From positions 1-27,648 of the IMG/VR virus record IMGVR_UViG_3300025674_000290: a stretch of DNA of 27,648 nt, one strand, 5' to 3'. Positions 357 to 15,229 of the stretch are shown here, piece after piece. Source of the stretch: a virus. Its lineage: Duplodnaviria; Caudoviricetes. Under the pieces are notes generated by a model that ran no database searches, had not been told where the DNA came from, and saw only the letters and a program-made list of their open reading frames with translations. Within the stretch, counting starts at the first letter, position 1; every line of letters begins with the position of its first letter. A program made the position numbers and the translations under genes.

Positions 357-2669
357 TTAAGACAGCAGGTACATTGCTCGATCTATTTGCGAGACGTCAA
401 GCGTCCCAAGTTCAGGCAGGTCAGGCAACTTTGCTGTCGGGTATTGATTCAATAACTCACATCTGAACTCTGCTAGTAAGTCAATTGAAAAGAAAGTCTT
501 GTATGTTTTTCGTACATCTTGGTGTACTTTGCGGGCGTTACAGGCGTGGCTTATAAAGCAGTCGTGAACAAACCCCATGTCGTACTCCATACGGTACGCT
601 AATCGGTGAACAACAGCTGCATCGATCCCGTGTATAAAGTTAGCAGTGATTCCTTTGCGTTGTTCCTTTGGGTCGATCTCATCTGTGTCGTCCTCCAGTT
701 CAACCGTTGTTGATATGTTACCGACTATGGTACGACACTGTAACCGTTTCGTTTTAGTCAGTCCTTGTACAACTTTGTATCCACTCGGTGTCGTCCATCT
801 GATTATCTGATTTCCTATTGCATTAGCACAACCCCGTAAGAACTGCTGAATACGGACAACACTCTCCAACTCCTCCCGTGCTACCGTGTTGAATTGTTCG
901 GCTAGGTAATTGATAGCGTCGATGTTCTCACCCTCTTGAAACGGATGGTTATCCCCAATGATACTTAAGAAGTTACTGAGTACATGATAGTACGACTGAC
1001 CGTATGGTTTATTCATCACCGCTGCTTTAGCCATAGCTCTTGTCACTCCGTACTTGAACCATTCAGATGCTATATAACTCTCACTTGACTGCTCCTTTAA
1101 CCGTTCGTACACAAGGTCAGCAATGTGCTGATACATATCTCCTACTGGTTGATCAGGTACAAGGTTACAGTGCTTGGCGTGTCGTGTATCCCGTAATAAC
1201 AAATGTAGTATCTGCATACCGTTATTACTACAGTCCATACGTACAGGAAAATGAGACACGTAACCGTATCCCTCTTTTGTAAACTGTTGATACTCAAAAC
1301 AAAACGCTAGAAATCCAAACGGTTCACTTGCTTCCATCCACCAGTCGTTAGTCATCGGGTCCTCTGCTGTCTCAAGGAACCACTTCTGATGTTTGCCCAC
1401 CCAGTGCAATCGTTCCTCAATGCTTCCCTTTACTCCCCATGCATTAGCTCCGTGGATCAACAGTCGTTCAAGGTCATCTTCATCTACTACCTGTTGACCA
1501 TCTCCGAATAACAAAAGACCACGTGCTAAGTCGTTACCCTGTGGGTGCAAATAAGCTGGCATATAATATACCCTGCCTCTGTAATCAACTCGTGCCGGAA
1601 AGTAAACATCGTCCCACTCCCTGTACTTCTTAGCTAGGTGTAATATCTTGGCGTGTTGTAGCCTTTTGCTACGGTTACTCTCATTGCGTCGTCGTATCTT
1701 GTCCTGTTTAAACTTCCACTCCCTTAATTCTTCAGGTCGTTCGTGTCCGTTCTCAAGGTACGGTTGCAAAGGTATCTCATGGAAGTCAAAGACTCTCTCT
1801 AATTCGTAACACTTTAGAGCAACATCTAAAATCTTCGTGTTAATTTTCCACTTTACCTGCTGTATATTATTCACGGACACGTAAAGATTCTTCATGCTTG
1901 CAAACTCGTAGTTACTACCATTCGGTCGGTTCATAACAAACGGATCATCAAAGCTTTCGTATCCTCCACTATAAAAGTCTACCCAGTCTCTCGGTTTTGT
2001 TGGCAACGCCATACGCATCGGGTCAAGCATCTCTTTCCATGTGTCAAACCGTCGTACCCAATCGCTGAACTTAGCAGACAACACCACGTCCTTGCGTAGC
2101 TTCTTACCAAATCGTTCGATACGGAACTCTATCAGTCCTGTGTGTGTAGCTATCTCTCCTAACAACCACGCACCAAGTGATACCTTCAGTCGTTTCTCCC
2201 AACACGTAAAACGTCGGTTATTCTTTTCAACATTATAAAAGCGTTGCATCTTTGACCGCTTACTCTTCGTTTTTTGTACGCTGAACATCTTATTCTTTGC
2301 AACCGTGTGTTCTGCTACCCGTTGTCGTGCGATCTCTTCAAATGCTTTGCCCACTTCCGCTGCCAGTCTACTAAAGTGTCGATCTTGTGAGTACATCTTA
2401 TCAAGCACAGTTTTCAACGCTATCTGTGCTACCATTTGAGGGTGGAAATCTGCTATATAACACAACCAAATCGGCATGGACGGACTGTCGTCACTGGCAA
2501 ATCGGTTAAAGAAGTCTTCAATCGGGTCGGCTAGTTGCGGTGCCAACTTACTTAACACACGCTTACTGCTGTCCAACTCACTGCCTCGCTCACTCTCCTT
2601 GTAGAACTGTTGGAACTGGCGATAGGTAGCTCGTCCCCATCGTTTCATCTCGGCTTCGATTGCGTTCAC
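357..2669 (-). CDS. gp1: Single-subunit T7-like DNA-directed RNA polymerase
   Basis: DYRGRVY, PQGND, motif A RMDCSNNGMQ, motif B RAMAKAAVMNKPYG, NFIHGID and motif C VHDCF. The ORF track starts at 2714; GTG 2669 is preferred because of its GTGA overlap with the upstream stop (770 aa). Confidence 0.97.
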   Translation of the reverse strand: MNAIEAEMKRWGRATYRQFQQFYKESERGSELDSSKRVLSKLAPQLADPIEDFFNRFASDDSPSMPIWLCYIADFHPQMVAQIALKTVLDKMYSQDRHFSRLAAEVGKAFEEIARQRVAEHTVAKNKMFSVQKTKSKRSKMQRFYNVEKNNRRFTCWEKRLKVSLGAWLLGEIATHTGLIEFRIERFGKKLRKDVVLSAKFSDWVRRFDTWKEMLDPMRMALPTKPRDWVDFYSGGYESFDDPFVMNRPNGSNYEFASMKNLYVSVNNIQQVKWKINTKILDVALKCYELERVFDFHEIPLQPYLENGHERPEELREWKFKQDKIRRRNESNRSKRLQHAKILHLAKKYREWDDVYFPARVDYRGRVYYMPAYLHPQGNDLARGLLLFGDGQQVVDEDDLERLLIHGANAWGVKGSIEERLHWVGKHQKWFLETAEDPMTNDWWMEASEPFGFLAFCFEYQQFTKEGYGYVSHFPVRMDCSNNGMQILHLLLRDTRHAKHCNLVPDQPVGDMYQHIADLVYERLKEQSSESYIASEWFKYGVTRAMAKAAVMNKPYGQSYYHVLSNFLSIIGDNHPFQEGENIDAINYLAEQFNTVAREELESVVRIQQFLRGCANAIGNQIIRWTTPSGYKVVQGLTKTKRLQCRTIVGNISTTVELEDDTDEIDPKEQRKGITANFIHGIDAAVVHRLAYRMEYDMGFVHDCFISHACNARKVHQDVRKTYKTFFSIDLLAEFRCELLNQYPTAKLPDLPELGTLDVSQIDRAMYLLS

Positions 2670-2878
2670 TTGGTCAGTCGTTCTCGTTCGTCTTCGTTCA
2701 TGAAACAAAACCAAGTTGGCGGACGAACACGAGGTCGGTCACTGCGTACAACTTTCAACTCCTTATCGTAACACAACTCATTATTACTCCAAAAAAAGTC
2801 ATACCCTTTCGTGACCAGTGCAGATATGGACTCGTCTAATTGTTCCAATACCTCCTCGTGTTCGTCCGTGTCTTCCAT
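2666..2878 (-). CDS. Early hypothetical protein, 70 aa
   Basis: ATG start, tight packing, stop overlaps the proposed RNAP start. Confidence 0.7.
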   Translation of the reverse strand: MEDTDEHEEVLEQLDESISALVTKGYDFFWSNNELCYDKELKVVRSDRPRVRPPTWFCFMNEDERERLTK

Positions 2879-2884
2879 GTTTGT

Positions 2885-3022
2885 TTAGTCTAGTGTTTGT
2901 TCGTACTGATCTATTACCCAAGCTTCGTACAAATCTTTTAGTTCTTCTCGCTCTTCGTCGGTTAATCCGTCGTCATCTTCGTAGTCAAGGAAGCTAGTTA
3001 GCCAGCTATCGTAGTCTCTCAT
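2885..3022 (-). CDS. Very acidic 45-aa early protein
   Basis: MRDYDSWLTSFLDYEDDDGLTDEEREELKDLYEAWVIDQYEQTLD. Start moved to ATG 3022, just after the upstream stop at 3027. Confidence 0.7.
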   Translation of the reverse strand: MRDYDSWLTSFLDYEDDDGLTDEEREELKDLYEAWVIDQYEQTLD

Positions 3023-3026
3023 AGTG

Positions 3027-3227
3027 TTATTTTGTTTCATCCGCAGATACGGACACGTAAAGATCATGCTTCTCGTTGTCAAGCTTGTCCTTTAATTTCT
3101 GTAGTTCTAAGTACAAAGGGAAAAACCTATTCGATGGGTCAATGCAGTCCCCTCCCATCTCATTCTGATGAATCCAAAACATTAACTCCTCTATCATTAC
3201 GCTTGGTTCTAAAGTTATCTCTTTCAT
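3027..3227 (-). CDS. Early hypothetical protein, 66 aa
   Basis: ATGAAA start with TAATG overlap to the upstream gene. Confidence 0.75.
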   Translation of the reverse strand: MKEITLEPSVMIEELMFWIHQNEMGGDCIDPSNRFFPLYLELQKLKDKLDNEKHDLYVSVSADETK

Positions 3228-3469
3228 TACAAAGCTATCCTTTTAAAGGTTGATGTATCAGTACACAGGTAACCATCATCGGTTGAGCAATAGGTGTCGT
3301 AACAAGTTACAATCCACTCTTCATCATCCTGCCAGATGTTAAAGTCAACGAACCCATCAGGTGTTTCTATTGAATCCCAGTGGTCGGTTGAAGGATCGGT
3401 TGAATTGATATGTGCTTTCGCACGGACACGTATGTTTTCTTTTATATCTTCGGTTAGGTTGAGTTTCAT
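3227..3469 (-). CDS. Early acidic hypothetical protein, 80 aa
   Basis: ATGAAA start, A-rich leader, translational coupling to the next gene. Confidence 0.75.
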   Translation of the reverse strand: MKLNLTEDIKENIRVRAKAHINSTDPSTDHWDSIETPDGFVDFNIWQDDEEWIVTCYDTYCSTDDGYLCTDTSTFKRIAL

Positions 3470-3490
3470 ATATCGGTTTTTTGATTGGTT

Positions 3491-3562
3491 TTAATCGTTG
3501 TAAATCAAGCTGATAAACAAACAGAATATAAATACTAAACAGAGTAGGGTGATCATTGACAT
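3491..3562 (-). CDS. 23-aa single-TM microprotein
   Basis: Manual translation MSMITLLCLVFIFCLFISLIYND. Fills the gap between neighbours; start overlaps the end of the upstream gene. Confidence 0.55.
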   Translation of the reverse strand: MSMITLLCLVFIFCLFISLIYND

Positions 3563-3744
3563 TGTTCGTCTTCTTTCTCTTTATCGGTTAATGGTAGGTT
3601 TAAAGATTGTCTTATGCATCCTTCTTTAATGTTGTAATTACTCGGAAAGCATAGGTCAGCTAGGCAGTCTACGCATATGTCCTCACCCTCTTTGTCAGTG
3701 CCTTGCAAGGTAAGACCGCAGTGTTTGCAAATTTGTTTAGTCAT
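3553..3744 (-). CDS. Small zinc-finger-like protein
   Basis: CKHC...CVDC (two CxxC pairs); start overlaps the upstream stop. Confidence 0.7.
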   Translation of the reverse strand: MTKQICKHCGLTLQGTDKEGEDICVDCLADLCFPSNYNIKEGCIRQSLNLPLTDKEKEDEQCQ

Positions 3745-3904
3745 CGGTTAAAACGGTACGCCCACAAAAAGGGCAAGGTGATCCGTCAATCGGACAAGAC
3801 AAGCCTTCATCGGACGGACATAAGTCAATCGGATGGTCGGTTAGCTTGTGATGATTGCAACTGGCGGTTAAGAGTAACAAGAGAAGTGATAAAAGTTTAT
3901 TCAT
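3737..3904 (-). CDS. Small Cys-rich putative lipoprotein, 55 aa
   Basis: From ATG 3904: MNKLLSLLLLLLTASC gives a basic N-region, hydrophobic core and lipobox-like Cys; four further Cys follow. Confidence 0.65.
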   Translation of the reverse strand: MNKLLSLLLLLLTASCNHHKLTDHPIDLCPSDEGLSCPIDGSPCPFCGRTVLTDD

Positions 3905-3908
3905 GTTC

Positions 3909-4163
3909 TTAGCTTTCCTCTTTTTCAAACTCTATGCCGACTAAATCAACTACATCACAAGCCAGCCCAAACTCTGGATAATGTGTAAAGTACGGCTCAC
4001 TATCTGGGTATTTATCGTCCCAAACATCTATGTTTTTATTTTGTTCCATGAATCGGTTAAACAATTCAATGTCATCATCATCTAGACCGTCAAAGTCTCC
4101 ATTAAATAACGCACACAATGCATAGGATGGGAATTGATATTCGTAAGTATTTTTAATTTTCAT
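3909..4163 (-). CDS. Acidic early phage protein (ALxNGDxxGLxD...EPYF...PxxGLA; recalled as DUF6926-like, unverified)
   Basis: ATGAAA start; recurrent phage motif pattern recognised by eye. Confidence 0.7.
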   Translation of the reverse strand: MKIKNTYEYQFPSYALCALFNGDFDGLDDDDIELFNRFMEQNKNIDVWDDKYPDSEPYFTHYPEFGLACDVVDLVGIEFEKEES

Positions 4164-4169
4164 GATGTT

Positions 4170-4388
4170 TTAAAATATGTATTCGGATTCATCTAGCTCG
4201 ATGGTTTCAGCTTGATCTAAATGATCTTTGACAAGTTGATAAATCTTCCCTTGCACTTCATCAGGTAAAATAAGCTCGAATTGTGCCTCATCATCACCGC
4301 CCCTATAGCCGTTTTCATGAGCGTTTTTATCGGTAGTAAATGAGGCAAAGATGCCCCAATCAAGTAAGTTTTTTTCGTTTATTTTCAT
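4170..4388 (-). CDS. Early acidic hypothetical protein, 72 aa
   Basis: ATGAAA start, A-rich leader, tight packing. Confidence 0.75.
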   Translation of the reverse strand: MKINEKNLLDWGIFASFTTDKNAHENGYRGGDDEAQFELILPDEVQGKIYQLVKDHLDQAETIELDESEYIF

Positions 4389-4414
4389 ATAAGTTTTTTC
4401 CTTTCGTGTTTTTA

Positions 4415-4639
4415 TTAGTTAGCATCGGTATTGAGACAACACCAGATAAGTAATAGCCATGCCCCCAGTGCCAGTATTGGGGAGGCAAGCAAGTAGATTA
4501 GGAAGGTACGCGGTTTTGTCTTTGGTAAATAGCGGTCAAGTGAATCGTCTATGCTCGCTACGCTCTGAACGCCATTATATGGCTTTTGTGCTATTGCATA
4601 TGTTTTTAATCGTTCGTCCATGGTCTTTTCGTTTTTCAT
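4415..4639 (-). CDS. Early protein with C-terminal transmembrane helix, 74 aa
   Basis: Start moved to ATG 4639 (MKNEKT), which removes the overlap and follows a leader shared with the 5060 gene. C-terminus FLIYLLASPILALGAWLLLIWCC. Confidence 0.7.
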   Translation of the reverse strand: MKNEKTMDERLKTYAIAQKPYNGVQSVASIDDSLDRYLPKTKPRTFLIYLLASPILALGAWLLLIWCCLNTDAN

Positions 4640-4682
4640 AGTAGTAATAATAGTTTTTTTTGTGAGTTGATGTTTGTAGTTA

Positions 4683-5060
4683 TTAAGAAAGTAATTCGCT
4701 TGTATGATCGCAATAGATATCTTCATCTGATTCATTGACGCAACCTAATCCAACGATTGACCAACCGTCTCTCATGTTATGCATCATTGAATAAAAGATT
4801 TCTTGCAAGTTATCTAGAACAGCGGAAAAGCTTAAGCAAGAGCCGTCGTCTGTAATAAAGAATAAACGATAAGAACCGGGAAAAGTATACTCTCCTGCAC
4901 GCAAACAAGCTTTTAGTTTATTAATTGAATCTATTTCTCTATAATGTCTTGCAACATCTTTTCGTACCAATTGCAAGTTGTCGTTTCGATAGGCATCACC
5001 CTCGAAAGTATAAAACTTTTGTGTTTTGTTGGATGGTTGGAATGATTTTAAGATTTTCAT
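4683..5060 (-). CDS. Conserved phage hypothetical protein, 125 aa
   Basis: Motifs Y-x-[FW]-PG-x-Y-x-L-F-F-I-T-x-DG, DGW and YCDH resemble a phage family of unknown function. Confidence 0.75.
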   Translation of the reverse strand: MKILKSFQPSNKTQKFYTFEGDAYRNDNLQLVRKDVARHYREIDSINKLKACLRAGEYTFPGSYRLFFITDDGSCLSFSAVLDNLQEIFYSMMHNMRDGWSIVGLGCVNESDEDIYCDHTSELLS

Positions 5061-5107
5061 GATAAGTAATAATATAGTTTTAATGTGAGTTGTTATTGGT
5101 TGTTTTG

Positions 5108-5323
5108 TTATGCTTGAAAACCGAAACCTTCCGTTGTGTAAGTTGAAAGTTTAAGGTGCTGATCTTTGTAAATACAAAAGCCCTTGCGTAAGCACTCAGT
5201 CAAAGAATCAATTTCACTTTGAATATCATCGTTCCAAGCGTCCGACGCTTTCACATCAAAGCACTTTAGAAGACGATTGATATTAGATTCGATGCAATCG
5301 TGTTGAACATGGATAGTCTTCAT
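5108..5323 (-). CDS. Early hypothetical protein, paralog of 5323-5595
   Basis: MKTIH...IES...QSEIDSLTECLRKG; TAATG coupling. Confidence 0.75.
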   Translation of the reverse strand: MKTIHVQHDCIESNINRLLKCFDVKASDAWNDDIQSEIDSLTECLRKGFCIYKDQHLKLSTYTTEGFGFQA

Positions 5324-5595
5324 TATTCGCTTTTAAGAAGGTTTAAGCCAATTTCACTATCGTTAATTTTGATAGGACGGGCGTTTGGTTCGTTTATAAA
5401 GTTTAAAGAATCCATCACATAAGTGACTCCGCAAGATTGATCATAGCCCTCACCACATCGTAAGGTTTCTTCTAAAGCATCGATTGTTTGTTGATATCGT
5501 TCGCAATCCTCGTAATCCTCACAATCATTAAGCCAATGCTCATAAAGTGCTTTTTCCGATTCTAGTGATGATTTAGTGAAGTGTATGGTTTTCAT
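5323..5595 (-). CDS. First early gene, acidic hypothetical protein
   Basis: MKTIH...LES...QQTIDALEETLRCG; first convincing ORF after the non-coding end region. Confidence 0.75.
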   Translation of the reverse strand: MKTIHFTKSSLESEKALYEHWLNDCEDYEDCERYQQTIDALEETLRCGEGYDQSCGVTYVMDSLNFINEPNARPIKINDSEIGLNLLKSE

Positions 5596-5631
5596 AAGTA
5601 ATAAGAGTTAGAATTAATAAGTAATTCAAAC

Positions 5632-5684
5632 AGCATTTACAGCATTACAAGAGCATTACGATAACAAAATTACCCATCTTGCAA
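5632..5684 (-). promoter_or_regulatory. Candidate host sigma70 early promoter with three short direct repeats
   Basis: Minus strand TTGCAA...TGtTATCGT (extended -10-like; spacing imperfect). AGCATT(T)AC occurs three times at 5632-5659. Confidence 0.35.
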
Positions 5685-5746
5685 CTTTGCTGTGTTTCTA
5701 ATGACAGCCATTAGCAAGTCTTATCAACTATCAGATCGACTAATGA

Positions 5747-5781
5747 CTTCCATATTTGGCAAGCTGCTTCCATATTTGGAA
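5747..5781. repeat. Tandem 13-bp direct repeat of a near-palindrome (operator-like)
   Basis: CTTCCATATTTGG at 5747-5759 and 5767-5779; the second copy forms TTCCA-TATT-TGGAA. Confidence 0.7.
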
Positions 5782-5946
5782 AAGAGGTGACGCGCTAAAA
5801 CGATAAATCCAAATGCAAATTAGTTGCACTTAGCGAACGATTCAATCGGCAACCCTTGACGCAATTCGACTGGCTGATCTTGCGATTTGCGAACGATAGG
5901 CTAAAAGTAAACAATACTCTTAAAAAGTTAAAAGTAGAGTGCTTAC

Positions 5947-5974
5947 AATTCGCACAATATGTATTATGTCTAAT
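5947..5974 (+). other. XerCD dif-like recombination site
   Basis: AATTCGCACAA-TATGTA-TTATGTCTAAT versus E. coli dif GGTGCGCATAA-TGTATA-TTATGTTAAAT: 11-6-11 layout with 7/11 and 9/11 arm identity; intergenic. Confidence 0.7.
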
Positions 5975-6094
5975 TCTTAAATTACATAACAAGAAGATAA
6001 TCAGGTGTTTAGCGTTACCTATTAGCCTGGCTTACCTATCGATTTAGTAAAACTTATTACAAACACCACCCCTGCCAGTAGATAAACCGCAGGC

Positions 6095-6148
6095 ACGCGC
6101 GGGGGTAATTAATGCGCGCGTATATAGCGTAAGCCGCTCAGATTTTTT
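6095..6148 (-). other. Predicted start of the direct terminal repeat / genome-end signal
   Basis: Minus strand AAAAAATCTGAG-N31-CCCCC, the same layout I recall around the start of the T7 terminal repeat. Lies between the last late and first early gene. ACGCGCG/CGCGCGT inverted repeat at 6095-6121. Confidence 0.55.
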
Positions 6149-6159
6149 CGTCAAATTTC

Positions 6160-6372
6160 TTAAAAAGAGGGGCTGATAAAGTCCTCTAAGTCGTCGTCTT
6201 CGTCTATATCTTCTGGGCTAAAAATGATCTCAGCGTCAGTTAAAACAGTCAGTTTAGCGAACTCTAACGCACCTACGATCGTCTGATCGTTAAGGTCGAA
6301 CTCCTGCTGGTATCGTCGTATTAAGTTGTCTAGGTCGAACATAAAGGAGTCCGTTTGATCGTTGTTGTTCAT
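6160..6372 (-). CDS. Acidic hypothetical protein, last late gene, 70 aa
   Basis: ATG start, plausible helical protein with acidic tail, same orientation as all other genes. Confidence 0.7.
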   Translation of the reverse strand: MNNNDQTDSFMFDLDNLIRRYQQEFDLNDQTIVGALEFAKLTVLTDAEIIFSPEDIDEDDDLEDFISPSF

Positions 6373-6891: not shown

Positions 6892-8580
6892 TTAACTCCA
6901 AAGAAGAGTGTTATTAGAACGTTTACGTTTATAAAAGCTATCAGTAAACTTTGTTAACTCTTCTTGTAGTAGTTCTTGTTTTCTATCGTACATATTCTTG
7001 TTAACATCAGCAGCCATTTGTTCTACCCAATAAGCAACAGCAATAGCTAACGCATCCAAACGGTCATCATGAGCCAGACTACCCCGTTCTCTTGTTATCC
7101 GTGATAGTTGATAGAATAACATATACCTAGCTTGAGACTCTATAGGATACGTTAACGCAGACTGGTAGTCGTTAGAGATAACTTTAGGATCAACAATAAG
7201 ACGATGACTGTTAAGTACAGGTTCAAGAGTATCAACAATCCTTAGTTCTTTTTGTTTACTACTACGTACTTCTTCTATGGTCACAGGATATTCATTACGA
7301 AACAACGGTTTAATCAGTTCCATAAACATACCGTCACCAAAGTTAGACTCTATAACGATCTTGTTAACTTTGTTGTTTTTAGCAATGGAGACGAGACGTT
7401 TTAACGTCACCTCGTCGTACCCTCCTTTAATACCACCAGCATCTGGTACAAACAACTGACTGTTAAGCATCTTTACGACAGCGTAAGCCGTTTCGTCTTT
7501 ACCCCGTCCAGAAGGATCAATAGACATGACAGACCCTGTGTACGGTATTAGTTCTCCTACAAGACTGCTAGGACGTTTGTAGCGGTCTCCTGCCAGTCCT
7601 ACATTAGGTAGTGTTCTATCTGCTTTCTCAGGGTCACTGGACCACACGATCTTTTCAGGGGCGGTATCAACGTCAACGTCGTGAATGATAAGGTCGTTAA
7701 TCTTTAGGGGATAACGGTCACGATCACTCAGCTTAGGGTTTAACATGAACTGCAACGCAAACCCGGTACGACCGTAAGACAGCTGACGTTCTTCAAGGTC
7801 CATATCACTGAAGCGTAAGGGTTCTGTGGATGTGCCTGTGGTCTCAGGAGTTATGTTATCTCGTATAAAGGGTGCAAGGGCTGGACCGTAGTTGTTATCA
7901 GCGTCCTCCTCCTTTGGGTATTGTGCGGGCCATACACGCTGCTCATAGCCCCTCTCTGCCAGTTTAGTGTACAGGCTGTCCTCGCATTGGGGTGTACCAA
8001 GAAATACAATCCTAGAGCTTTCTAGAGGCTTTATAATAGAATCAAACTCTTTGACGGCTTCGTCCAGCTTATCCCGTAGTCCTTGTGTTTGAGAGTTAGA
8101 CGGTACTTCTACGTCGTCAGCTACGATTATATCAGCACGGGAACCAGTCAGCTGGGATGTTACTCCTAACGACTTAACGGAGGGTGCGTGAGAAGCAGGA
8201 GCACCGTTAACGTCAAAAGCTATCTTACTGAACCGTTGGTTCTCTGATGGTTGTAGATGTTGTAGGCATGGGATGTCCTGTATCAGACGTAATGTAAAAG
8301 TGGAGAAGTCATCTGATCTATTCTTACTGGCAGACACAACAAGTATGTTTTTTGTTTGGTCAAGTAGTAGTTGATGAACAACAAATGCTGAGGTTATCCA
8401 GCTCTTACCACACCCACGAAATGCTTGAATAACGGAACGACGGGGTCCATTTTGCAAGTATAAAGCCATGTCGTACTGTAACGGAGTAGGGTCAGGCAGG
8501 TTAAGGTGTCGCCAAACAAGACACAGAAAGTTTCTAAAGTCTCGTAGTTGTGGTGGTATCTCTTGGTGTTTCTTCTTCAT
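6892..8580 (-). CDS. terL: Terminase large subunit (DNA maturase B)
   Basis: Walker A AFRGCGKS, LTGSRAD, Walker B IIVADDVE, nuclease motifs IDPSGRGKDET and HDDRLDALA as in T7 gp19. Start ATG 8580 (562 aa) is preferred over 8718. Confidence 0.97.
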   Translation of the reverse strand: MKKKHQEIPPQLRDFRNFLCLVWRHLNLPDPTPLQYDMALYLQNGPRRSVIQAFRGCGKSWITSAFVVHQLLLDQTKNILVVSASKNRSDDFSTFTLRLIQDIPCLQHLQPSENQRFSKIAFDVNGAPASHAPSVKSLGVTSQLTGSRADIIVADDVEVPSNSQTQGLRDKLDEAVKEFDSIIKPLESSRIVFLGTPQCEDSLYTKLAERGYEQRVWPAQYPKEEDADNNYGPALAPFIRDNITPETTGTSTEPLRFSDMDLEERQLSYGRTGFALQFMLNPKLSDRDRYPLKINDLIIHDVDVDTAPEKIVWSSDPEKADRTLPNVGLAGDRYKRPSSLVGELIPYTGSVMSIDPSGRGKDETAYAVVKMLNSQLFVPDAGGIKGGYDEVTLKRLVSIAKNNKVNKIVIESNFGDGMFMELIKPLFRNEYPVTIEEVRSSKQKELRIVDTLEPVLNSHRLIVDPKVISNDYQSALTYPIESQARYMLFYQLSRITRERGSLAHDDRLDALAIAVAYWVEQMAADVNKNMYDRKQELLQEELTKFTDSFYKRKRSNNTLLWS

Positions 8581-8586
8581 CGTATC

Positions 8587-8624
8587 AAATAAAAAGGAGC
8601 CGACGTTATGATGCCGACTCCTTT
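8587..8624 (-). terminator. Rho-independent terminator between terS and terL
   Basis: Minus RNA AAAGGAGUCGGCAU-CAUA-ACGUCGGCUCCUUU followed by UUAUUU. Two G-U pairs form only on the minus strand. Confidence 0.75.
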
Positions 8625-8650
8625 GAAGTATAAGGGAATGTAGTAAGAAG

Positions 8651-8905
8651 TTAAAGTTGTTTCTCGATGGGTATATCGTCTTGTTGTTCTTGAGGGAACG
8701 GTAACGCTTTGAACTCATTAGCTAAATCGTTAACAGGAGTACCACTACGATTATCTACCGTGATGTTGTTATCCTTTAACCATTTACCGACAGCGTTCAT
8801 AAGAGCCGGGTTGTATTCCTCCATAGCTTTCATGTAACCTACTGCACCTTTGCACAGATCAGTATAACTGTCTGCAAGTTTAGCTCCTTCTACGTGATCC
8901 TTCAT
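8651..8905 (-). CDS. terS: Terminase small subunit (DNA maturase A)
   Basis: 84 aa directly upstream of terL; PALMNAVGKWLKDNNI...P...L...LPF pattern of gp18-like proteins. Confidence 0.8.
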   Translation of the reverse strand: MKDHVEGAKLADSYTDLCKGAVGYMKAMEEYNPALMNAVGKWLKDNNITVDNRSGTPVNDLANEFKALPFPQEQQDDIPIEKQL

Positions 8906-8910
8906 AAGTA

Positions 8911-9108
8911 TTATTTGTTGTCTCTCGGCATCTCAGAGTGGTCACCACGTCCGTTCATATTGTTAAGGATTCGTGTTACCCACATCTGTAAAAGAGCGGA
9001 GGAGCTGAGACCGAGCGTATTAGCGATCCCAGCTACCTCCTTCTTTTGTGAGCTTGTGAGACGAAAAGTTAGAGATGCAGTATCTCTTTTTTTACCTTTC
9101 GCACTCAT
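8911..9108 (-). CDS. Ribbon-helix-helix DNA-binding protein (CopG/RelB/DinJ-like)
   Basis: SLTFRL strand, helix, then LGLSSSALL turn and second helix. Confidence 0.75.
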   Translation of the reverse strand: MSAKGKKRDTASLTFRLTSSQKKEVAGIANTLGLSSSALLQMWVTRILNNMNGRGDHSEMPRDNK

Positions 9109-9124: not shown

Positions 9125-10306
9125 TTAGGCCATTGCAGCTGTAAAGTCAGCCAATGATCCAAGATTGTTACCGTCACCAAGAACAACGTCGTTAGCTTTA
9201 ACGTCGATCAAGGTAGCACTGCTGTCGTCTCCACTGATGTCAGTAGAAGTAGCACCAGCTGAAGTTTTGTAGAAAGCGAACTTATCTTCACCTTCGTCGT
9301 AAACAGCAGCGATGTTACCGTCGTCAGAAGAACCACGCTCAATGATAAACCCAGCGTCGTTACCGTTGTTAGCCGAGGAACCAGCTCCGTCATTGAGAAG
9401 CATGATAGCGTCTTTAACTTGGGAGTTGGTTGTTTCAAGCGAGGTAGTTGTACCTTGAACAGTTAAGTTACCGCTAAGTACAAGGTTAGTTCCGCTTACG
9501 TCTCCAGTAAAGGAAGCACCACTAAGATTAGCTTTTGTGCTATCAAGATTGGAAACAGCAGCTGCACGAGTGGAAGCTTCAGCGTCAATGTTAGCTTGAA
9601 GGGTTGTATCAGCAGATGATCTGGCAGTAGCTTCACCACTAACAGCAGCGATACGAGCAGTTTCTTCAGCGTCAATATTGGACTGTAAAGTCGTATCAGC
9701 AGAAGCTCTAGCAGAAGCCTCGTCATTGATGTTTGTTTGAAGGGTCGAGTCAGCGGATTGACGGGCAGTCTCTTCAGCATCAATGTTGCTTTGGAGAGTT
9801 GTGTCAGCACTAGCACGAGAAGAAGCTTCACTATCAATGTTAGACTGAAGGGTGGTATCGGCAGATGCACGAGTACTTGCTTCAGAAGAGATAGCGTCAG
9901 CGTTAGTTTTGATCTGTGCATCGAGAGCTTCGTCAGCAGCAACCAAAGAACCAGCAGATGTGATGTAGTTGGTTGAGGAGTTAGCTGTGTAAGACCCGTC
10001 CGATCCAAGACCAGCACCAGTCTCAACAGCGTCTACGGCTGCTTGAAGAGCGGTGTCAGCGGATGCTCTGCTGCTTGCTTCACTGTCAATGTTACCTTGT
10101 AAGGTAGTATCAGCAGACGCACGGCTAGAAGCTTCGCTGTCGATGTTAGATTGCAGGGTAGAGTCAGCACTTGCACGACTGGAGGCTTCCGAATCAATGT
10201 TCGTTTGTAATGTAGCTTCAGCAGCTTCTGCACGTGAAGTTTCTACGGCAATAGCACTTTTGGTCGATTGACCGATTTGATAGAATATAGATGATGTATC
10301 TGGCAT
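9125..10306 (-). CDS. Coiled-coil fibre protein with 18-aa repeats
   Basis: About 9-10 copies of EASSRASADTTLQSNIDS; C-terminal GNLTVQGTTT...D-x-G-x-x-I-ERG fibre-type domain. Confidence 0.8.
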   Translation of the reverse strand: MPDTSSIFYQIGQSTKSAIAVETSRAEAAEATLQTNIDSEASSRASADSTLQSNIDSEASSRASADTTLQGNIDSEASSRASADTALQAAVDAVETGAGLGSDGSYTANSSTNYITSAGSLVAADEALDAQIKTNADAISSEASTRASADTTLQSNIDSEASSRASADTTLQSNIDAEETARQSADSTLQTNINDEASARASADTTLQSNIDAEETARIAAVSGEATARSSADTTLQANIDAEASTRAAAVSNLDSTKANLSGASFTGDVSGTNLVLSGNLTVQGTTTSLETTNSQVKDAIMLLNDGAGSSANNGNDAGFIIERGSSDDGNIAAVYDEGEDKFAFYKTSAGATSTDISGDDSSATLIDVKANDVVLGDGNNLGSLADFTAAMA

Positions 10307-10343
10307 ATTATTTATTAACTATAGTTAGTATTGATGGTTAAAG

Positions 10344-10487
10344 TTAAGCAGTACCATCCGAAACAAGCTCTGTCCAAGCAGACCCGTCCCAAATGATAAT
10401 CTTATTAGTGTCCGTCTCAAAGTATGTTTCACCAGCAGTTGGTGAAGCGGGACGGGTGGATGATGTGACTGTATTTAAAGTAGCCAT
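10344..10487 (-). CDS. 47-aa fibre adaptor module
   Basis: Manual translation MATLNTVTSSTRPASPTAGETYFETDTNKIIIWDGSAWTELVSDGTA. Confidence 0.8.
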   Translation of the reverse strand: MATLNTVTSSTRPASPTAGETYFETDTNKIIIWDGSAWTELVSDGTA

Positions 10488-10491
10488 TGTC

Positions 10492-10728
10492 TTATAGTTC
10501 CTCCATAGGTTGTGTCCAAGCTTCCCCTGCCAACACGGTCAACATAGCCGAGTGAGAGAGTGTATCTTTTCCGTATAGGCATCGTGGTTTAGCTCCTTCG
10601 TATTTAACAAAGGTCTGATCACCCGCCACGTTATATCTTAGTGTGTCCACTGATGTTTCAAGTACTTCGTCAAAGTTAACGGTACTTACTTCATCAGCAT
10701 TTAGAATTACATATTGTCTATTGCTCAT
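10492..10728 (-). CDS. Small conserved protein following the LamG fibre gene (possible chaperone)
   Basis: 78 aa, tightly packed; function inferred from position only. Confidence 0.7.
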   Translation of the reverse strand: MSNRQYVILNADEVSTVNFDEVLETSVDTLRYNVAGDQTFVKYEGAKPRCLYGKDTLSHSAMLTVLAGEAWTQPMEEL

Positions 10729-10741
10729 AGTGTTTTAATGG

Positions 10742-11629
10742 TTACGCAACATAGATGCTGTCAGGTGCTGTGCTTAGATCGTAAAAGGTTGGGCTATTAA
10801 CAAGCGTACCGTCGTTTCCTCCGCTTCCTTGGTCTGTGATTGTAGTTCCTGTGCCACCATCGTTATCACCCATTCTCCACCAGCTAACGGGATTAAGAGA
10901 AGATAAATCGTCAGGTGATCCGCTGTTGTATATACTAGTTATATCCGATGAACTCAATTCCGTATTAAAAATACCTACCTCATCTATATTACCTTGAAAC
11001 GGAAGGAAGATTTGACCAGAAGTGTCTAACGCACCGCCAATAATAAAATTATGCTGAGCGGTGGCGGTTGTTGTACTAGGTGCTGAAGAAAAATCTAATT
11101 GAGAACCATCCACATACAATCTTATTGATCCTGCTTGTGCACAAGTCACTGCTACATGATGCCAATTATTATCACTAATAGCATACGTACTTTGAGCATA
11201 AGCATTTGTACTTGATGTAGGAGCTATACGTGACCTTAGATAATCTAGACCACTCCTATTGTCGAACCAAAGCATAAAACCAACTCGACTTCCTGAATCC
11301 GTTGTATGCAAGATATATTGATTTCTAGCTAGTGTATAGTCTTGAAATTTTATCCAAGCAGAAATAGTAAAATTCATAGTCTGCTGCATGAAATCAAATT
11401 TATTTCCTGTGTCTACATAATCATTAGTTCCATCAAAGCTTACGCTGTAGGTGTTACTAAAACTAGAAGCTTCATTAGCAAACGTTCTCCACACTCCGCT
11501 GTCGTATACAACAATAGCACCTGCATCGGTACTACCAGCAGCTTTCAAATATAACTCACCATTCTTAGCGAGTCCGTTAGTTACCAGCGATGATTGTTCG
11601 CTGTCGTTAATTACTGTAATATCGCTCAT
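10742..11629 (-). CDS. Concanavalin A-like/LamG lectin-domain protein (candidate receptor-binding protein)
   Basis: FDGTNDYV, FTISAWIK, WHHVAVT, LYVDG, GNIDEVGIFN, WWRMGD...D-x-GS-x-x-NDGTL. Confidence 0.9.
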   Translation of the reverse strand: MSDITVINDSEQSSLVTNGLAKNGELYLKAAGSTDAGAIVVYDSGVWRTFANEASSFSNTYSVSFDGTNDYVDTGNKFDFMQQTMNFTISAWIKFQDYTLARNQYILHTTDSGSRVGFMLWFDNRSGLDYLRSRIAPTSSTNAYAQSTYAISDNNWHHVAVTCAQAGSIRLYVDGSQLDFSSAPSTTTATAQHNFIIGGALDTSGQIFLPFQGNIDEVGIFNTELSSSDITSIYNSGSPDDLSSLNPVSWWRMGDNDGGTGTTITDQGSGGNDGTLVNSPTFYDLSTAPDSIYVA

Positions 11630-11631
11630 GT

Positions 11632-11889
11632 TTAGCTGTTGTTATAGACTTGCCAGTTACTACCGTCAAATACGTAGAGATCGTAAGTATCGCTTCCGTA
11701 CATGATAGTGCCGACGTCGTCGCTTGTTCTTGCTGATATGTTAGCTGCCGTGTCTACATCGGGTGAAACGGTATCTTCAGGGAAGCCGAGAATAGACTTT
11801 AAGAAGTCCGTCACAGCGTCCGTTTTATCTACCTTGTCATCCAACTTCGACTTAACGGTCTGCCCGATTTGTTGAAGTATGTTAGCCAT
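11632..11889 (-). CDS. Small fibre adaptor protein, 85 aa
   Basis: N-terminal QQIGQTVK; C-terminal ARTSDDVGTIMYGSDTYDLYVFDGSNW. Confidence 0.8.
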   Translation of the reverse strand: MANILQQIGQTVKSKLDDKVDKTDAVTDFLKSILGFPEDTVSPDVDTAANISARTSDDVGTIMYGSDTYDLYVFDGSNWQVYNNS

Positions 11890-11929
11890 TAGTGATTATA
11901 TTTTTATGTTAGTGATTATTGATTGTCAA
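11889..11929 (-). promoter_or_regulatory. Candidate internal promoter with 11-bp direct repeats
   Basis: Minus TTGACA (11929-11924)-N17-TAAAAA, with TATAAT 6 nt further on; TTAGTGATTAT at 11889 and 11909. Confidence 0.4.
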
Positions 11930-11931
11930 AA

Positions 11932-12126
11932 CTATTGAGCAGCTTGCCATCCTGAGCTTGTAAATACATACAATTTATTAGTGTCCGTGGCAAAAGCCAT
12001 CGTTCCTAATTCGTCGTCAGTCCTTGCTTGAATATTACTCTCGGTGTCCAGAATAGCCTTGCTAGTGCTAGTAAGAGATATTAATAAGTTCCTGACACTC
12101 TGTCCCATTTGATACCATACGCTCAT
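11932..12126 (-). CDS. Small fibre adaptor protein, 64 aa (paralog of 11632-11889)
   Basis: YQMGQSVR and ARTDDELGTMAFATDTNKLYVFTSSGW. Confidence 0.8.
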   Translation of the reverse strand: MSVWYQMGQSVRNLLISLTSTSKAILDTESNIQARTDDELGTMAFATDTNKLYVFTSSGWQAAQ

Positions 12127-12173
12127 ATTTTGCTTTCATTTTTATTAGGTTAAATCCGACTCTTGTTAGAGTA

Positions 12174-12410
12174 TCATGGATCACCTGTCAAGCCTTCAAG
12201 AAATTCTGCGTGATCTCCCACCTCTTCTTCACGTGCATCTAGGAAGTACGGAAGGTCATTCCAAGCAGTCGTCCCGTCTCCTATCTTAATACGATTACGG
12301 TCAGCATCTAACTCAATAGCGACTTCCCCTTCTAGCAGTACAGGGTTCTCTTCCTGCCACTCAGCATAAGTACCACGTCTTAATTGTATACGTTTTGTAA
12401 AACTAGGCAT
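12174..12410 (-). CDS. Mtd-N/hyaluronidase-N-like small tail protein, 78 aa
   Basis: From ATG 12410: RIQLRRGTYAEWQEENPVLLEGE...KIGDGTTAWNDLPY. Confidence 0.85.
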   Translation of the reverse strand: MPSFTKRIQLRRGTYAEWQEENPVLLEGEVAIELDADRNRIKIGDGTTAWNDLPYFLDAREEEVGDHAEFLEGLTGDP

Positions 12411-12633
12411 CTGGTTGTCCTCCGTCGAATATATCAGTGTCGTCCAATACAGGACCACCCCCGTCAATAGTAACAAAAAATGGATCACTCTCCAGCGACC
12501 TAACCTTCGTTTGTAATTCGTCAGCTCTTTCTTTATTCTCAGTAGCTACAGCCGACGACGTAGCCGATATGGTACGCTGTTGAAAGCTTAACGGATTAGG
12601 ACGAACGACAGGTCTTCTAACAGGTCTAGCCAT
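12403..12633 (-). CDS. Hypothetical tail-associated protein, 76 aa
   Basis: C-terminal IDGG...FDGG motifs; stop overlaps the next start. Confidence 0.7.
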   Translation of the reverse strand: MARPVRRPVVRPNPLSFQQRTISATSSAVATENKERADELQTKVRSLESDPFFVTIDGGGPVLDDTDIFDGGQPDA

Positions 12634-12634
12634 C

Positions 12635-12913
12635 CTACCATTTTTTACAGGACCAATATCCCGCAGATAATTTTGATTTCTTTTGATCGCATTTATGTCT
12701 GGCTCTGAAAGAACGACGACGAGCTGGATCGCTTTTCTTAATAGTCATCTTAGCATCACCGAAACGAACGATGCGATGCTTACTACCTTCTTTAGCACAC
12801 ACAACAAACTTCTTCTTACCGTATCCGGGTTCACCTTTGCGTATGCGTCTAGGCTTGTTAATAGCTAAACCACGACGCTTACACCCCGTCATTGCTTTCT
12901 TTTTCTCAGCCAT
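12635..12913 (-). CDS. Small highly basic conserved phage protein, 92 aa
   Basis: From ATG 12913: V-x-FGD-x-x-M-x-I-K...P-x-RR-x-SFRARH-x-C...SAGYWSCKKW (recalled as DUF6321-like, unverified). Confidence 0.8.
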   Translation of the reverse strand: MAEKKKAMTGCKRRGLAINKPRRIRKGEPGYGKKKFVVCAKEGSKHRIVRFGDAKMTIKKSDPARRRSFRARHKCDQKKSKLSAGYWSCKKW

Positions 12914-13037
12914 TCTTCTTAGGGAACCCACGCTTCATGTTAGCGTAAGCTTTTGGCGATATAGTTGACTTCTTCTTACTACGGCTGATACCGAGTTTCT
13001 TTCTTCTGTTAATGTTTGCGTATAATCCTTTTGGCAT
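12906..13037 (-). CDS. 43-aa basic protein
   Basis: Manual translation MPKGLYANINRRKKLGISRSKKKSTISPKAYANMKRGFPKKNG; exactly fills the gap. Confidence 0.75.
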   Translation of the reverse strand: MPKGLYANINRRKKLGISRSKKKSTISPKAYANMKRGFPKKNG

Positions 13038-13039
13038 AT

Positions 13040-13291
13040 CTACCTCTTCATTAGTAGCTCCATCATACGATCAAGCTTAGTGTTTATCTCTTTAATATTT
13101 GTTTCAAGACCACCCATACGGTTCTCAACAGCAGTATCTCTTTCACTTTGTGCTGCCAGCTCCACCTCTATCTTAGTCAACCGTTTCTCGTCGTTCTCTA
13201 AGCGATCAGACAGTTTCTTTATCATCCAACCGATCACGGCAAGTATTACACCAAGAGCAGTATCTAAGAAGTGGGAGAGTGATTCAGTCAT
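13040..13291 (-). CDS. N-terminal TM plus coiled-coil protein (possible holin or lysis accessory)
   Basis: ALGVILAVIGWMIKK followed by a heptad-rich helix; lies between fibre and terminase genes. The holin role is a guess. Confidence 0.6.
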   Translation of the reverse strand: MTESLSHFLDTALGVILAVIGWMIKKLSDRLENDEKRLTKIEVELAAQSERDTAVENRMGGLETNIKEINTKLDRMMELLMKR

Positions 13292-13294
13292 TTA

Positions 13295-14011
13295 CTATCC
13301 TATAATTACTACATTAAGACCTACAGTATTTAAATTTGCGGTGTGTGAGCAATGTAAATCAAAACCATTAGCAGTTCTATTTTTAACTACTATAGAATCA
13401 GTTGTTGGTGAAGTAAACTCCCTACCGAGTACTACGGTATAACTGTCACCACTAGCTCTAGCACTGCTGAATGTTAAAGTATATACACCTACTGTTGCTG
13501 TACTTACGATAGCACTGAAGCCGTATACCCAAGTGACAGTACCAGCAGCAATTTCCTGAGCCAACGTACCTGTGCCAACATTACCGAAGAAACGAGCGTG
13601 AGCGACAGCAGTAGGAAAATTAACTTTATCTGCCGATACATTTGAATCTGCAATCTTATCAGTTGTTACAGCATCGTTAGCTATCTCAGTACTCGTAACA
13701 GCATTAGCAGCTATCTCGGTACTCGTAACAGCATTAGCAGCTATCTCGGTACTTGTAACAGCATTAGCAGCTATCTCGGTACTTGTAACAGCATTAGCAG
13801 CTATTTGAGCTGTATCAACAGCATCGTTATCTATCTCACTACCAGCAATCGTATCGCTTTTCTTTCGTAGCTCATGCCCACCAGCTGTACTGCCGTCGTG
13901 TACTACAACTGTATCTTTATCAGTATCTACTGTTACTTCTCCTTCAGCACCTGTGAAGCTACCGTGTTGTGCTGTGGTTCCTCTTCTTAATTTTACTTGT
14001 ATGTTTGGCAT
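13295..14011 (-). CDS. Tail fibre protein: Mtd-N-like head, IAANAVTSTE repeat shaft, small C-terminal beta domain
   Basis: VKLRRGTTAQHGSFTGAEGEVTVDTDKDTVVVHDG; 10-aa repeats. Confidence 0.85.
   Translation of the reverse strand: MPNIQVKLRRGTTAQHGSFTGAEGEVTVDTDKDTVVVHDGSTAGGHELRKKSDTIAGSEIDNDAVDTAQIAANAVTSTEIAANAVTSTEIAANAVTSTEIAANAVTSTEIANDAVTTDKIADSNVSADKVNFPTAVAHARFFGNVGTGTLAQEIAAGTVTWVYGFSAIVSTATVGVYTLTFSSARASGDSYTVVLGREFTSPTTDSIVVKNRTANGFDLHCSHTANLNTVGLNVVIIG
13681..13800. repeat. Four near-identical 30-bp tandem repeats
   Basis: CTATCTC(A/G)GTACT(C/T)GTAACAGCATTAGCAG x4 with degenerate flanking copies. Confidence 0.95.
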
Positions 14012-14023
14012 AGTTATATGTGG

Positions 14024-14299
14024 TTATGCGATTGATCCAAAGTCTAATGTTGTTGATAAGTTATCTGAGTCTACTACTCCGTTAGCAATAACAGTTGCAC
14101 CGTCTCCTGTAGACGTTACTTCTCCTGTATGGTTGGGGTGTGTATAAGCACCAGCACCTACAGCAATACCGCCTAATGTAGAACCGTCGTGTACGAATAA
14201 GTCCTTGGTGTCAGTGGTGTAAACAATTTCCCCTTCCTGTCCTGTAAACGCAGCGTTCTCAGCAGCTGTCCCTCTTCTTATTTGTACTTCAATACTCAT
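14024..14299 (-). CDS. Small Mtd-N-like tail protein, 91 aa
   Basis: VQIRRGTAAENAAFTGQEGEIVYTTDTKDLFVHDG; YTHPNHTGEVTSTGDGAT; ends LDFGSIA. Confidence 0.85.
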   Translation of the reverse strand: MSIEVQIRRGTAAENAAFTGQEGEIVYTTDTKDLFVHDGSTLGGIAVGAGAYTHPNHTGEVTSTGDGATVIANGVVDSDNLSTTLDFGSIA

Positions 14300-15229
14300 T
14301 TATGCAATTCCTCCGTAGCTGAATGATGCAGTCACTGGGTCACCCACTATACTACCGTAATCGTAATCAGTTGGTATATCAGTAATAGCAGTCTTAAAAC
14401 CTCTTTCAATAACAAGTATCTCAGCTAAGTTAGCGGGTGGTGTGTCAAAGCGTATCAGGTTACTAGCTCCTACGATTGTGTAGTCGTCCGGGTCTATGAC
14501 TGCTCCTGCTATAGTTACTAACATTGCAGTAGACGACGTAACATTAGCAGTAAATGTAAGAGCAAACTCTGTCTCACTGCCGTTTCCTGTAAACTTACTA
14601 AAGCTTGGTGGATTTCCTGTACCTGTGGTTAGACTTGATATGGCACTGTCAACGTATGACTTATTAGCTGAGTCTGACGCAGATAACGGATCGCTTACAC
14701 CTGTTAAAAGATTACCGTTAATATCAACAGAGCCTAATACCTTAGAACCGTCAAAGTCATTTAATGATCGTGTGTCTACATAGTTCTTAGTAGCTCCGTC
14801 TTGTGCGTCTACAGGATCAGCTAAGTCTTTTAAGTTTTGGTTCTGTGCAGTAAAGTCCTGACTACCTTGTATCCGTTGTATAGAAGCGTCATTCAGTTCT
14901 CCTATTTCTTCATTTAAGAAACGGTTGTGCTGGTACGCTCTATCTAGTTCACTCTCAGTAAGTACCGATCCGTTCTCAAAGTCTACAAGGTTTAAGTCAG
15001 GTTGACTCTTACGACGTACTCTTACATTGTCACCAGCGTCAACACCAGAGCTAGGAAACACACGAGTGACTCCTGATGTAGTAGATACCGTAAAGTATTC
15101 ACGAGCCAACACACTACCGTTTACTTCTACTGTTATGTGGATTTCTTCAAGGAACGGGAACGTCACGATAAAACCTGCCGTAATGTCGGAGGCTGAGACG
15201 CTGTTATAGTCTACGTAGGTGTTAGCCAT
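14300..15229 (-). CDS. gp17: Tail fibre anchor with T7 gp17-type N-terminal domain
   Basis: F-x-x-T-F-P-F-L...RVRR...VDFENGSVLTESELD; two DP...A-x-K-x-YVD repeats; follows gp16. Confidence 0.88.
   Translation of the reverse strand: MANTYVDYNSVSASDITAGFIVTFPFLEEIHITVEVNGSVLAREYFTVSTTSGVTRVFPSSGVDAGDNVRVRRKSQPDLNLVDFENGSVLTESELDRAYQHNRFLNEEIGELNDASIQRIQGSQDFTAQNQNLKDLADPVDAQDGATKNYVDTRSLNDFDGSKVLGSVDINGNLLTGVSDPLSASDSANKSYVDSAISSLTTGTGNPPSFSKFTGNGSETEFALTFTANVTSSTAMLVTIAGAVIDPDDYTIVGASNLIRFDTPPANLAEILVIERGFKTAITDIPTDYDYGSIVGDPVTASFSYGGIA

Follow-up and report, generated by a model that had tools for sequence, protein, structure and literature searches.

A conserved Opitutales-type Xer site near the predicted genome end of a clade of T7-like phages

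The window analysed here, a stretch of 27,648 nucleotides from a T7-like phage, carries at positions 5947-5974 a 28-bp sequence resembling dif, the chromosomal site of the XerC and XerD recombinases. Comparison with related phages and with bacterial genomes shows that this is a real, selected and host-identifying Xer site in a clade of T7-like phages. The host is the bacterial order Opitutales, and the sequence of the window site predicts that it is bound and cleaved as a host-type XerC/XerD site. How the phage uses it is a matter of proposal. The best explanation, whose chances we regard as about even, is that host XerC and XerD recombine the phage's own copies of the site, joining genome ends or resolving multimers, rather than recombining the phage with chromosomal dif.

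The site reads AATTCGCACAA-TATGTA-TTATGTCTAAT, an 11-6-11 layout in which two partly palindromic 11-bp arms flank a 6-bp centre. The initial annotation had called it dif-like, and the comparison on which this was based is confirmed: 7 of 11 and 9 of 11 arm positions are identical to E. coli dif, as are 4 of 6 in the spacer (reference sequence from PMC3025954). The arm at 5947..5957 (plus strand), named by analogy to E. coli dif, is predicted to bind XerC, and its inner 9 bases are those of the Opitutales dif consensus. The predicted XerD-binding arm at 5964..5974 (plus strand) is exact in 42 of the 47 sites found via terminase relatives. The central region TATGTA (5958..5963, plus strand) occurs in 5 of the 120 host sites listed, and there are 28 different spacers among 104 phage site contexts. 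Two outer bases of the XerD arm, in the window as in Opitutales dif, differ from E. coli at positions that PMC2731167 reports as setting XerD specificity.

The site lies between a 70-aa ORF (6160-6372) and the first early ORF (5323-5595), and two putative short open frames overlap it, one on the minus strand (5795-5992) and one on the plus strand (5856-6047). It is the sole match in the window at three or fewer mismatches (shuffle mean 0.01), and its arm score is 20 of 20 positions, against a best of 17 among 200 shuffles. No tRNA, and hence no tRNA attP, was found in the window, and a promoter scan gave matches at or below the level of shuffled sequence.

The record (27.6 kb, 71% complete) has all of its listed genes on the minus strand. 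Between them, the window and its relatives encode the T7-like (Autographiviridae-type) gene set: single-subunit RNA polymerase (357..2714, minus strand, in the window), T7-type terminase, tail, primase/helicase, polymerase and endonuclease I, the last of these encoded by the closest near-complete relative. The window also has tail, internal virion and capsid genes, a terminase small subunit (terS; 8651..8905, minus strand) and a T7-type terminase large subunit (6892..8718, minus strand), which served as the marker for collecting relatives. Small ORFs, the longest of 125 aa, fill the early region (2666..5595, minus strand), the part of the genome in which those T7-like phages that have an integrase carry it. 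A long region (9125-15229) separating terS from the internal virion gene consists of small, repeat-rich, tail-fibre-like and LamG genes with tandem coding repeats of 54 bp and 30 bp (9523-10247 and 13620-13829), which is variable relative to the closest relative.

The assembly spans the junction between the last late gene, the 70-aa ORF (minus strand; acidic and of no family), and the first early genes from 5595 downward, with the site inside it. The layout of this junction is shared among the relatives: end box, near-palindrome, C-run/G-run element, site, bipartite motif, short repeats, early genes. In the window, the T7-type end box (6137..6147, minus strand), of the kind found ahead of the terminal repeat in both T7 and LUZ100, predicts a left genome end at about 6118-6130; ProddE has no such end box. 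Directly after the box, at the predicted terminus, is the conserved near-palindrome (6118..6131, minus strand), followed by the C-run/G-run element (6068..6107, minus strand), similar to the sequence with which the terminal repeats of T7 and LUZ100 begin. Downstream of the site is the conserved bipartite motif (5857..5891, minus strand), and in 43 of the 44 ends having this motif the dif copy ends before it. Two 12-bp direct repeats follow (5748..5779).

The terminal repeat begins 6 nt after the box in T7, where we take it to be the last 160 nt, and 18 nt after it in LUZ100, with an annotated repeat of 244 bp. Such spacings would place the site about 145-185 nt inside the left end, where 160-185 bp had first been proposed. 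The site may lie inside a direct terminal repeat, the end box serving to predict where that repeat starts. The contigs that end in this part of the genome do so at scattered positions, 71-796 nt, with no pile-up. Read depth over pieces with the site was 1.7-1.9 times that of the early region in three runs, and was rejected as a signal of the terminal repeat; the late-gene side is equally deep, so strain sharing explains the excess.

The arms, with the spacer left free, were scanned over one genome per prokaryote species, and matched at least 120 loci (about 240 estimated). Among the 120 matches listed, 114 are in Verrucomicrobiota (88 of them named Opitutia), four in Pseudomonadota and two in genomes without a phylum. 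The motif was matched in 304 of 401 Opitutales genomes, mostly once; five of five genomes had one exact copy, plus one copy with two mismatches. Near 80 host loci with long flanks, GGGNAGGG, which we take to be the KOPS motif, is oriented toward the site 320 times and away from it 20 times. GC skew drops across the site in 47 of 52 host loci with at least 4 kb on each side, compared to 18 of 40 control splits, and among four long contigs a long-range switch of skew was clear in two, weak in one and absent in one. Two strong XerD-family genes stand at the top of the list in five of five Opitutales genomes. Single-copy occurrence, KOPS convergence, the drop in GC skew and the two XerD-family genes identify the motif as the chromosomal dif of Opitutales (Verrucomicrobiota).

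The window site matches the consensus of this dif at 25 of 28 positions and the sites of three genomes at 27 of 28, with the same spacer in those three. The arms thus do fingerprint the host lineage, as the initial annotation had thought they might, and the lineage is Opitutales. Weak independent support for this host comes from one Opitutales genome bin holding a T7-like phage contig whose terminase is 62% identical. This 20-kb contig has the end box, no dif copy and a duplicated repeat of about 30 bp after the end region.

Several features of the host sites were noted in passing. Around Opitutales dif, polarity is strongest for the 8-mers AGGGGAGG (74 vs 1) and GGGCAGGG (133 vs 4), candidates for a lineage-specific KOPS variant. 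Five genomes labelled outside Verrucomicrobiota carry the Opitutales-type motif, likely on mis-binned contigs or mobile DNA. Two host dif sites in a non-phage context have unusual spacers, TCGGCG and GGGTTA, the former resembling a class of phage spacers. One Opitutales genome has two dif-like copies (3907-3932 and 4498-4523 of its contig), 591 bp apart in direct repeat and one of them degenerate, possibly a small Xer-mobilised cassette or a relic of one.

Conservation in the phage clade was assessed in the best 80 of 378 terminase relatives, 73 of which had the C-terminus of the terminase and 41 at least 1.7 kb downstream of it. The site was present at 16 or more of 20 arm positions in 38 of these 41 relatives and in none of the 41 upstream control windows – it is conserved beyond its flanks, as a functional site was expected to be. 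Of 77 distinct box-bearing ends, some of them collected with the arm pattern, 74 have the site; it starts 82-184 nt past the box, in one orientation in 49 and in the other in 25. Information content was 0.2-0.3 bits at the centre of the spacer, mostly less than 0.7 in the flanks, and 1.3-2.0 bits at all but three arm positions, although the arm values are too high, since arm patterns were used to collect many of the contexts. Nearly every copy preserves the two arms at a distance of exactly 6 bp. The XerC arm is more variable than the XerD arm among the 47 sites found via terminase relatives, and decays in some. Across terminases down to about 70% identity the site is kept, while flanks, spacer and orientation change.

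Orientation of the site does not follow the phage phylogeny. On a quick terminase tree of 60 rows there were 16 changes of orientation, compared to shuffled means of 18.2 and 16.3, and two rows with identical terminase fragments carry the site in opposite orientation. The 10-row clade that includes the window has four spacers and both orientations. Since orientation is independent of the tree and spacers are mixed, the end cassette is swapped often, and the arms survive the swaps. Three near-identical ends have no site; about 80-200 nt past the box they carry another cassette, similar in length. In one of them the terminase fragment is identical to the one in a phage that does have the site; with these three ends as evidence, the site is dispensable. 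No variant with a spacing of 5, 7 or 8 bp was found in them at 15 or more of 20 positions. Their cassette carries a tandem GTGGCTACA repeat, and may be a site for another host protein. A pdif-type cassette was considered and rejected, as no second, paired site was found in the relatives (best second score at most 14 of 20).

The spacers of phages and hosts differ greatly. Of the host sites listed, 99 of 120 have a spacer fitting TAWRYA, compared to 23 of 104 distinct phage contexts, which are not independent samples, and 5 of 28 phage spacer types. Neither half of the host spacer is matched in 37 of the 104 phage contexts (4 of the 120 host sites listed), and the XerC-side triplet that VGJ-type integration needs is found in 39. 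The window's own spacer does fit the host pattern. No search pattern constrained the spacer, so it is a stronger clue to the use of the site than are the failures to find a prophage described below.

Because the window record is incomplete, the absence of an integrase was tested on relatives. The tyrosine integrase family PF00589 was found in none of 25 longer records, 14 of which are at least 90% complete (controls were positive in 14 of 14), and in none of another 25 fragments, which were picked because they span the early region. The early observation of no visible integrase thus extends to 50 phage records, complete relatives included; four fragments with site-less ends were also negative. 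A close relative has a 334-aa early ORF (4835-5839) that is HNH-like by eye, in a record with no PF00589 hit. Serine resolvases (PF00239) and DUF3653 (PF12375), which we take to be the family of XafT-like activators, were each absent from five records. A TLC-type element was rejected on this result and on the intact XerD arm, and the 70-aa last gene was rejected as an activator because it has no family and is present in a site-less relative. No partition genes were found among the proteins scanned from the window and its closest near-complete relative.

The initial annotation had also read the repeats near the site and a ribbon-helix-helix (RHH) gene as signs of a regulated temperate or carrier state. 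The 12-bp repeats at 5748-5779 are present in only four of nine close relatives, with other short repeats substituting for them in the rest; being interchangeable, they are not a conserved operator. The RHH-like gene (8911..9108, minus strand), a high-scoring lead from a language model with no Pfam hit at 1e-4, is 2.9 kb away beside terS and has no link to the site. A regulated temperate state gains no support from either feature.

IHF-like motifs, counted with what we take to be the IHF consensus, are found within 80 nt of 40 of 63 T7-like sites, compared to 2 of 107 control windows, 3 of 116 host sites and 1 of 23 sites in other phages; the window itself has no perfect motif. The idea that KOPS loads FtsK onto phage DNA was rejected: the G-rich KOPS-like words before the site are not tied to its orientation (15/25 vs 24/49, p=0.46) and occur in site-less ends too, and there is no genome-wide KOPS polarity (0-1 forward, 0-2 reverse).

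Three other explanations were weighed. The one raised first was integration: the site would be an attP, and the phage an IMEX (integrative mobile element exploiting Xer) whose entry into the chromosome at host dif is transient or rare. Host-type arms, a window site identical at 27 of 28 positions to three host dif sites with the same spacer, and the lack of an integrase where related temperate T7-like phages have one all fit this, as do the two host dif sites with unusual spacers. The attP spacers of gokushoviruses vary too, and according to PMC7062461 their prophages are seldom observed and readily excised. Searches for an integrated form argue against this reading. T7-type RNA polymerase was present in none of the 401 Opitutales genomes (the positive control worked), and terminase in one, on the separate 20-kb contig, which has no site and does not include the dif of that genome. 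The DNA up to 10 kb from each of 80 host dif sites contained no phage gene cluster, only two single proteins resembling proteins of the viral loci, and the predicted T7-like prophages flanked by dif hybrids did not appear. Of 101 metagenome contigs with a phage end and the site, 100 had at least 150 nt downstream, and all 100 continue into phage DNA, none into host-like DNA. These negatives are softened by genomes that are fragmentary or incomplete and by contigs that are redundant and probably come from virus-fraction samples. No repressor was identified, and the spacers that match neither host half, or lack the XerC-side triplet, also argue against integration. With no prophage or junction found, and most phage spacers misfitting host dif even though the window's own fits, integration without a phage integrase is unlikely.

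A protein-binding function without recombination is quite improbable as well. XerC and XerD would then use the site as a landing pad that protects the end against nucleases, brings in topoisomerase IV or FtsK, or stops defence complexes that scan DNA. XerD does have non-recombinational roles. Binding explains the free spacer, the free orientation and the fixed position near the end as well as recombination between phage copies does; an almost invariant XerD arm beside a XerC arm that decays in some relatives, and the failure to find an activator gene in the five records searched for DUF3653, would also fit. Against it, nearly all copies keep both arms and the exact 6-bp spacing, as catalytic sites do, and cleavage is reported to work best with a centre of 6 bp. 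Greater variability of the XerC arm is described as normal for functional dif. A chance look-alike, or a relic of captured host DNA without present use, is very improbable. The three related ends without a site, and the cultured Opitutia phage P8625, which also has none, could be taken in its favour. It is largely refuted by the selective conservation of the arms: their full match exceeds the best shuffle, they are kept to about 70% terminase identity while the sequence around and between them changes and the orientation varies, and the same site is found in unrelated tailed lineages.

Recombination between the phage's own copies is preferred. XerC and XerD would bind the phage site, which, if within a direct terminal repeat of about 190 bp or longer, would be present as two copies in direct repeat on each injected genome. 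Crossover between the two would give a circle, or two genomes joined head to tail, and on circles or concatemers the same reaction could resolve multimers. It can further be speculated that a Holliday junction made by XerC is finished by the phage's endonuclease I, and that the IHF-like sites beside many copies have an accessory role, like that of PepA/ArgR at cer. A site that pairs with its own copy would leave spacer and orientation unconstrained, and both are indeed seen to drift. T7 itself is not known to need circles or Xer for its replication, which counts against recombination between phage copies; the same is true of the three site-less ends, which show the site to be dispensable, of the failure to find a XerD activator (DUF3653 in five records; a 70-aa gene of no family), of a window spacer shared with five host sites, and of the rare hosts with unusual spacers. 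In assemblies a circle and a concatemer give the same junction, and the products of recombination are indistinguishable there. Circularisation and multimer resolution, both put forward in the initial annotation, are the favoured, though unproven, functions of the site. At cer, a resolvase of the cell is described as completing the junctions. For two Xer sites to recombine, their central regions must be identical or closely related, and the action of FtsK is limited to the septum (10.1101/2024.04.09.588662), the latter point also counting against the proposal.

The site is not confined to T7-like phages. The arm pattern occurs at no fewer than 119 loci in viral records (about 130 estimated), and when grouped by two shared proteins, 31 viral loci cluster apart from the T7-like group. 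Representatives of these have different replication genes: one has DnaC/DnaD-like loaders, Erf and RusA; one a DNA polymerase and a primase; and one a helicase and Sak4. The same Opitutales dif was observed in unrelated tailed phages L151 (G015), L188 (G020), L117 (G012) and L104, lying before the terminase large subunit by about 0.5 kb in G020 and about 2.2 kb in G015. PF00589 was absent from the three of these lineages that were searched (G012, G015, G020). The cultured Opitutia siphovirus P8625 has no site, so a dif copy is not universal in phages of this host class.

BLAST of a 34-mer against cultured phages gave chance-level hits only, and a literature search, which most subscription journals lay outside, found no tailed or T7-like (Autographiviridae, Caudoviricetes) phage with a dif site. 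In the Xer/dif literature consulted (PMC5357621, PMC7062461, PMC9226527, PMC3025954, PMC2731167, PMC4642752, 10.1101/2024.04.09.588662), the known users of host Xer are plasmids and small non-tailed phages or islands. The following overall picture is offered tentatively, at somewhat less than even probability: a widespread, apparently lytic clade of T7-like phages of Opitutales keeps dif in its terminal repeat, and host XerC/XerD stand in for Cre, circularising the genome or joining its ends; its spacers have drifted to suit recombination with itself and not with the chromosome; and unrelated tailed phages have converged on the same site.

If this is correct, T7-like phages, the textbook linear concatemer replicators, gain a host-recombinase route to circles or multimers, and podophages join plasmids and small non-tailed phages as exploiters of Xer. 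Under any mechanism the arms can serve as an alignment-free host tag, which assigns to Opitutales a large uncultured clade of estuarine and marine phages plus several unrelated ones; the only cultured phage of this host class that the literature search surfaced is siphovirus P8625. The spacer comparison offers a general means of distinguishing dif mimics that integrate from those that recombine with themselves.

The phage site has the same arms and 6-bp centre as the chromosomal dif of Opitutales, the substrate of XerC/XerD and FtsK; it differs in its drifting spacer, lack of KOPS polarity, and frequently adjacent IHF-like motifs. It also resembles the plasmid Xer sites cer and psi and the pdif (xrs) sites of Acinetobacter, which have host-type arms on an extrachromosomal replicon, a conserved XerD arm, a variable centre and either orientation, and serve self-recombination. 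Unlike these plasmids, the phage has one copy per genome unit, T7-type replication, no paired-site cassette, and no partition genes that could be found. The attP sites of IMEX elements (VGJphi, TLCphi, CTXphi and the dif motifs of gokushoviruses) are similar in that an integrase-less phage carries a dif-like site fitting host XerC/XerD, but the known ones are small, non-tailed and seen integrated at dif, a form not found here. PMC5357621 describes VGJ-type integration as keeping homology on the XerC side, and TLC is described as having a host-like centre and a degenerate XerD arm; in the phage clade, by contrast, the XerD arm is intact and neither half of the centre is kept.

Among tailed phages, the temperate T7-like MedDCM-OCT-S45-C18, LUZ100, DU_RP_I and ProddE have the same genome plan and terminases of 56-64% identity, the best hit being S45-C18 at 63.5%. 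Each of the four, however, has an integrase annotated upstream of its RNA polymerase, and none carries a site of the Opitutales type (best 13-15 of 20). In P1, the loxP site in the terminal redundancy, with Cre, circularises the genome and resolves dimers, and the likeness to P1 holds only if the Opitutales phages recombine their own copies. P1 encodes its own recombinase as well as plasmid partition genes; the Opitutales phage would instead borrow the enzymes of its host.
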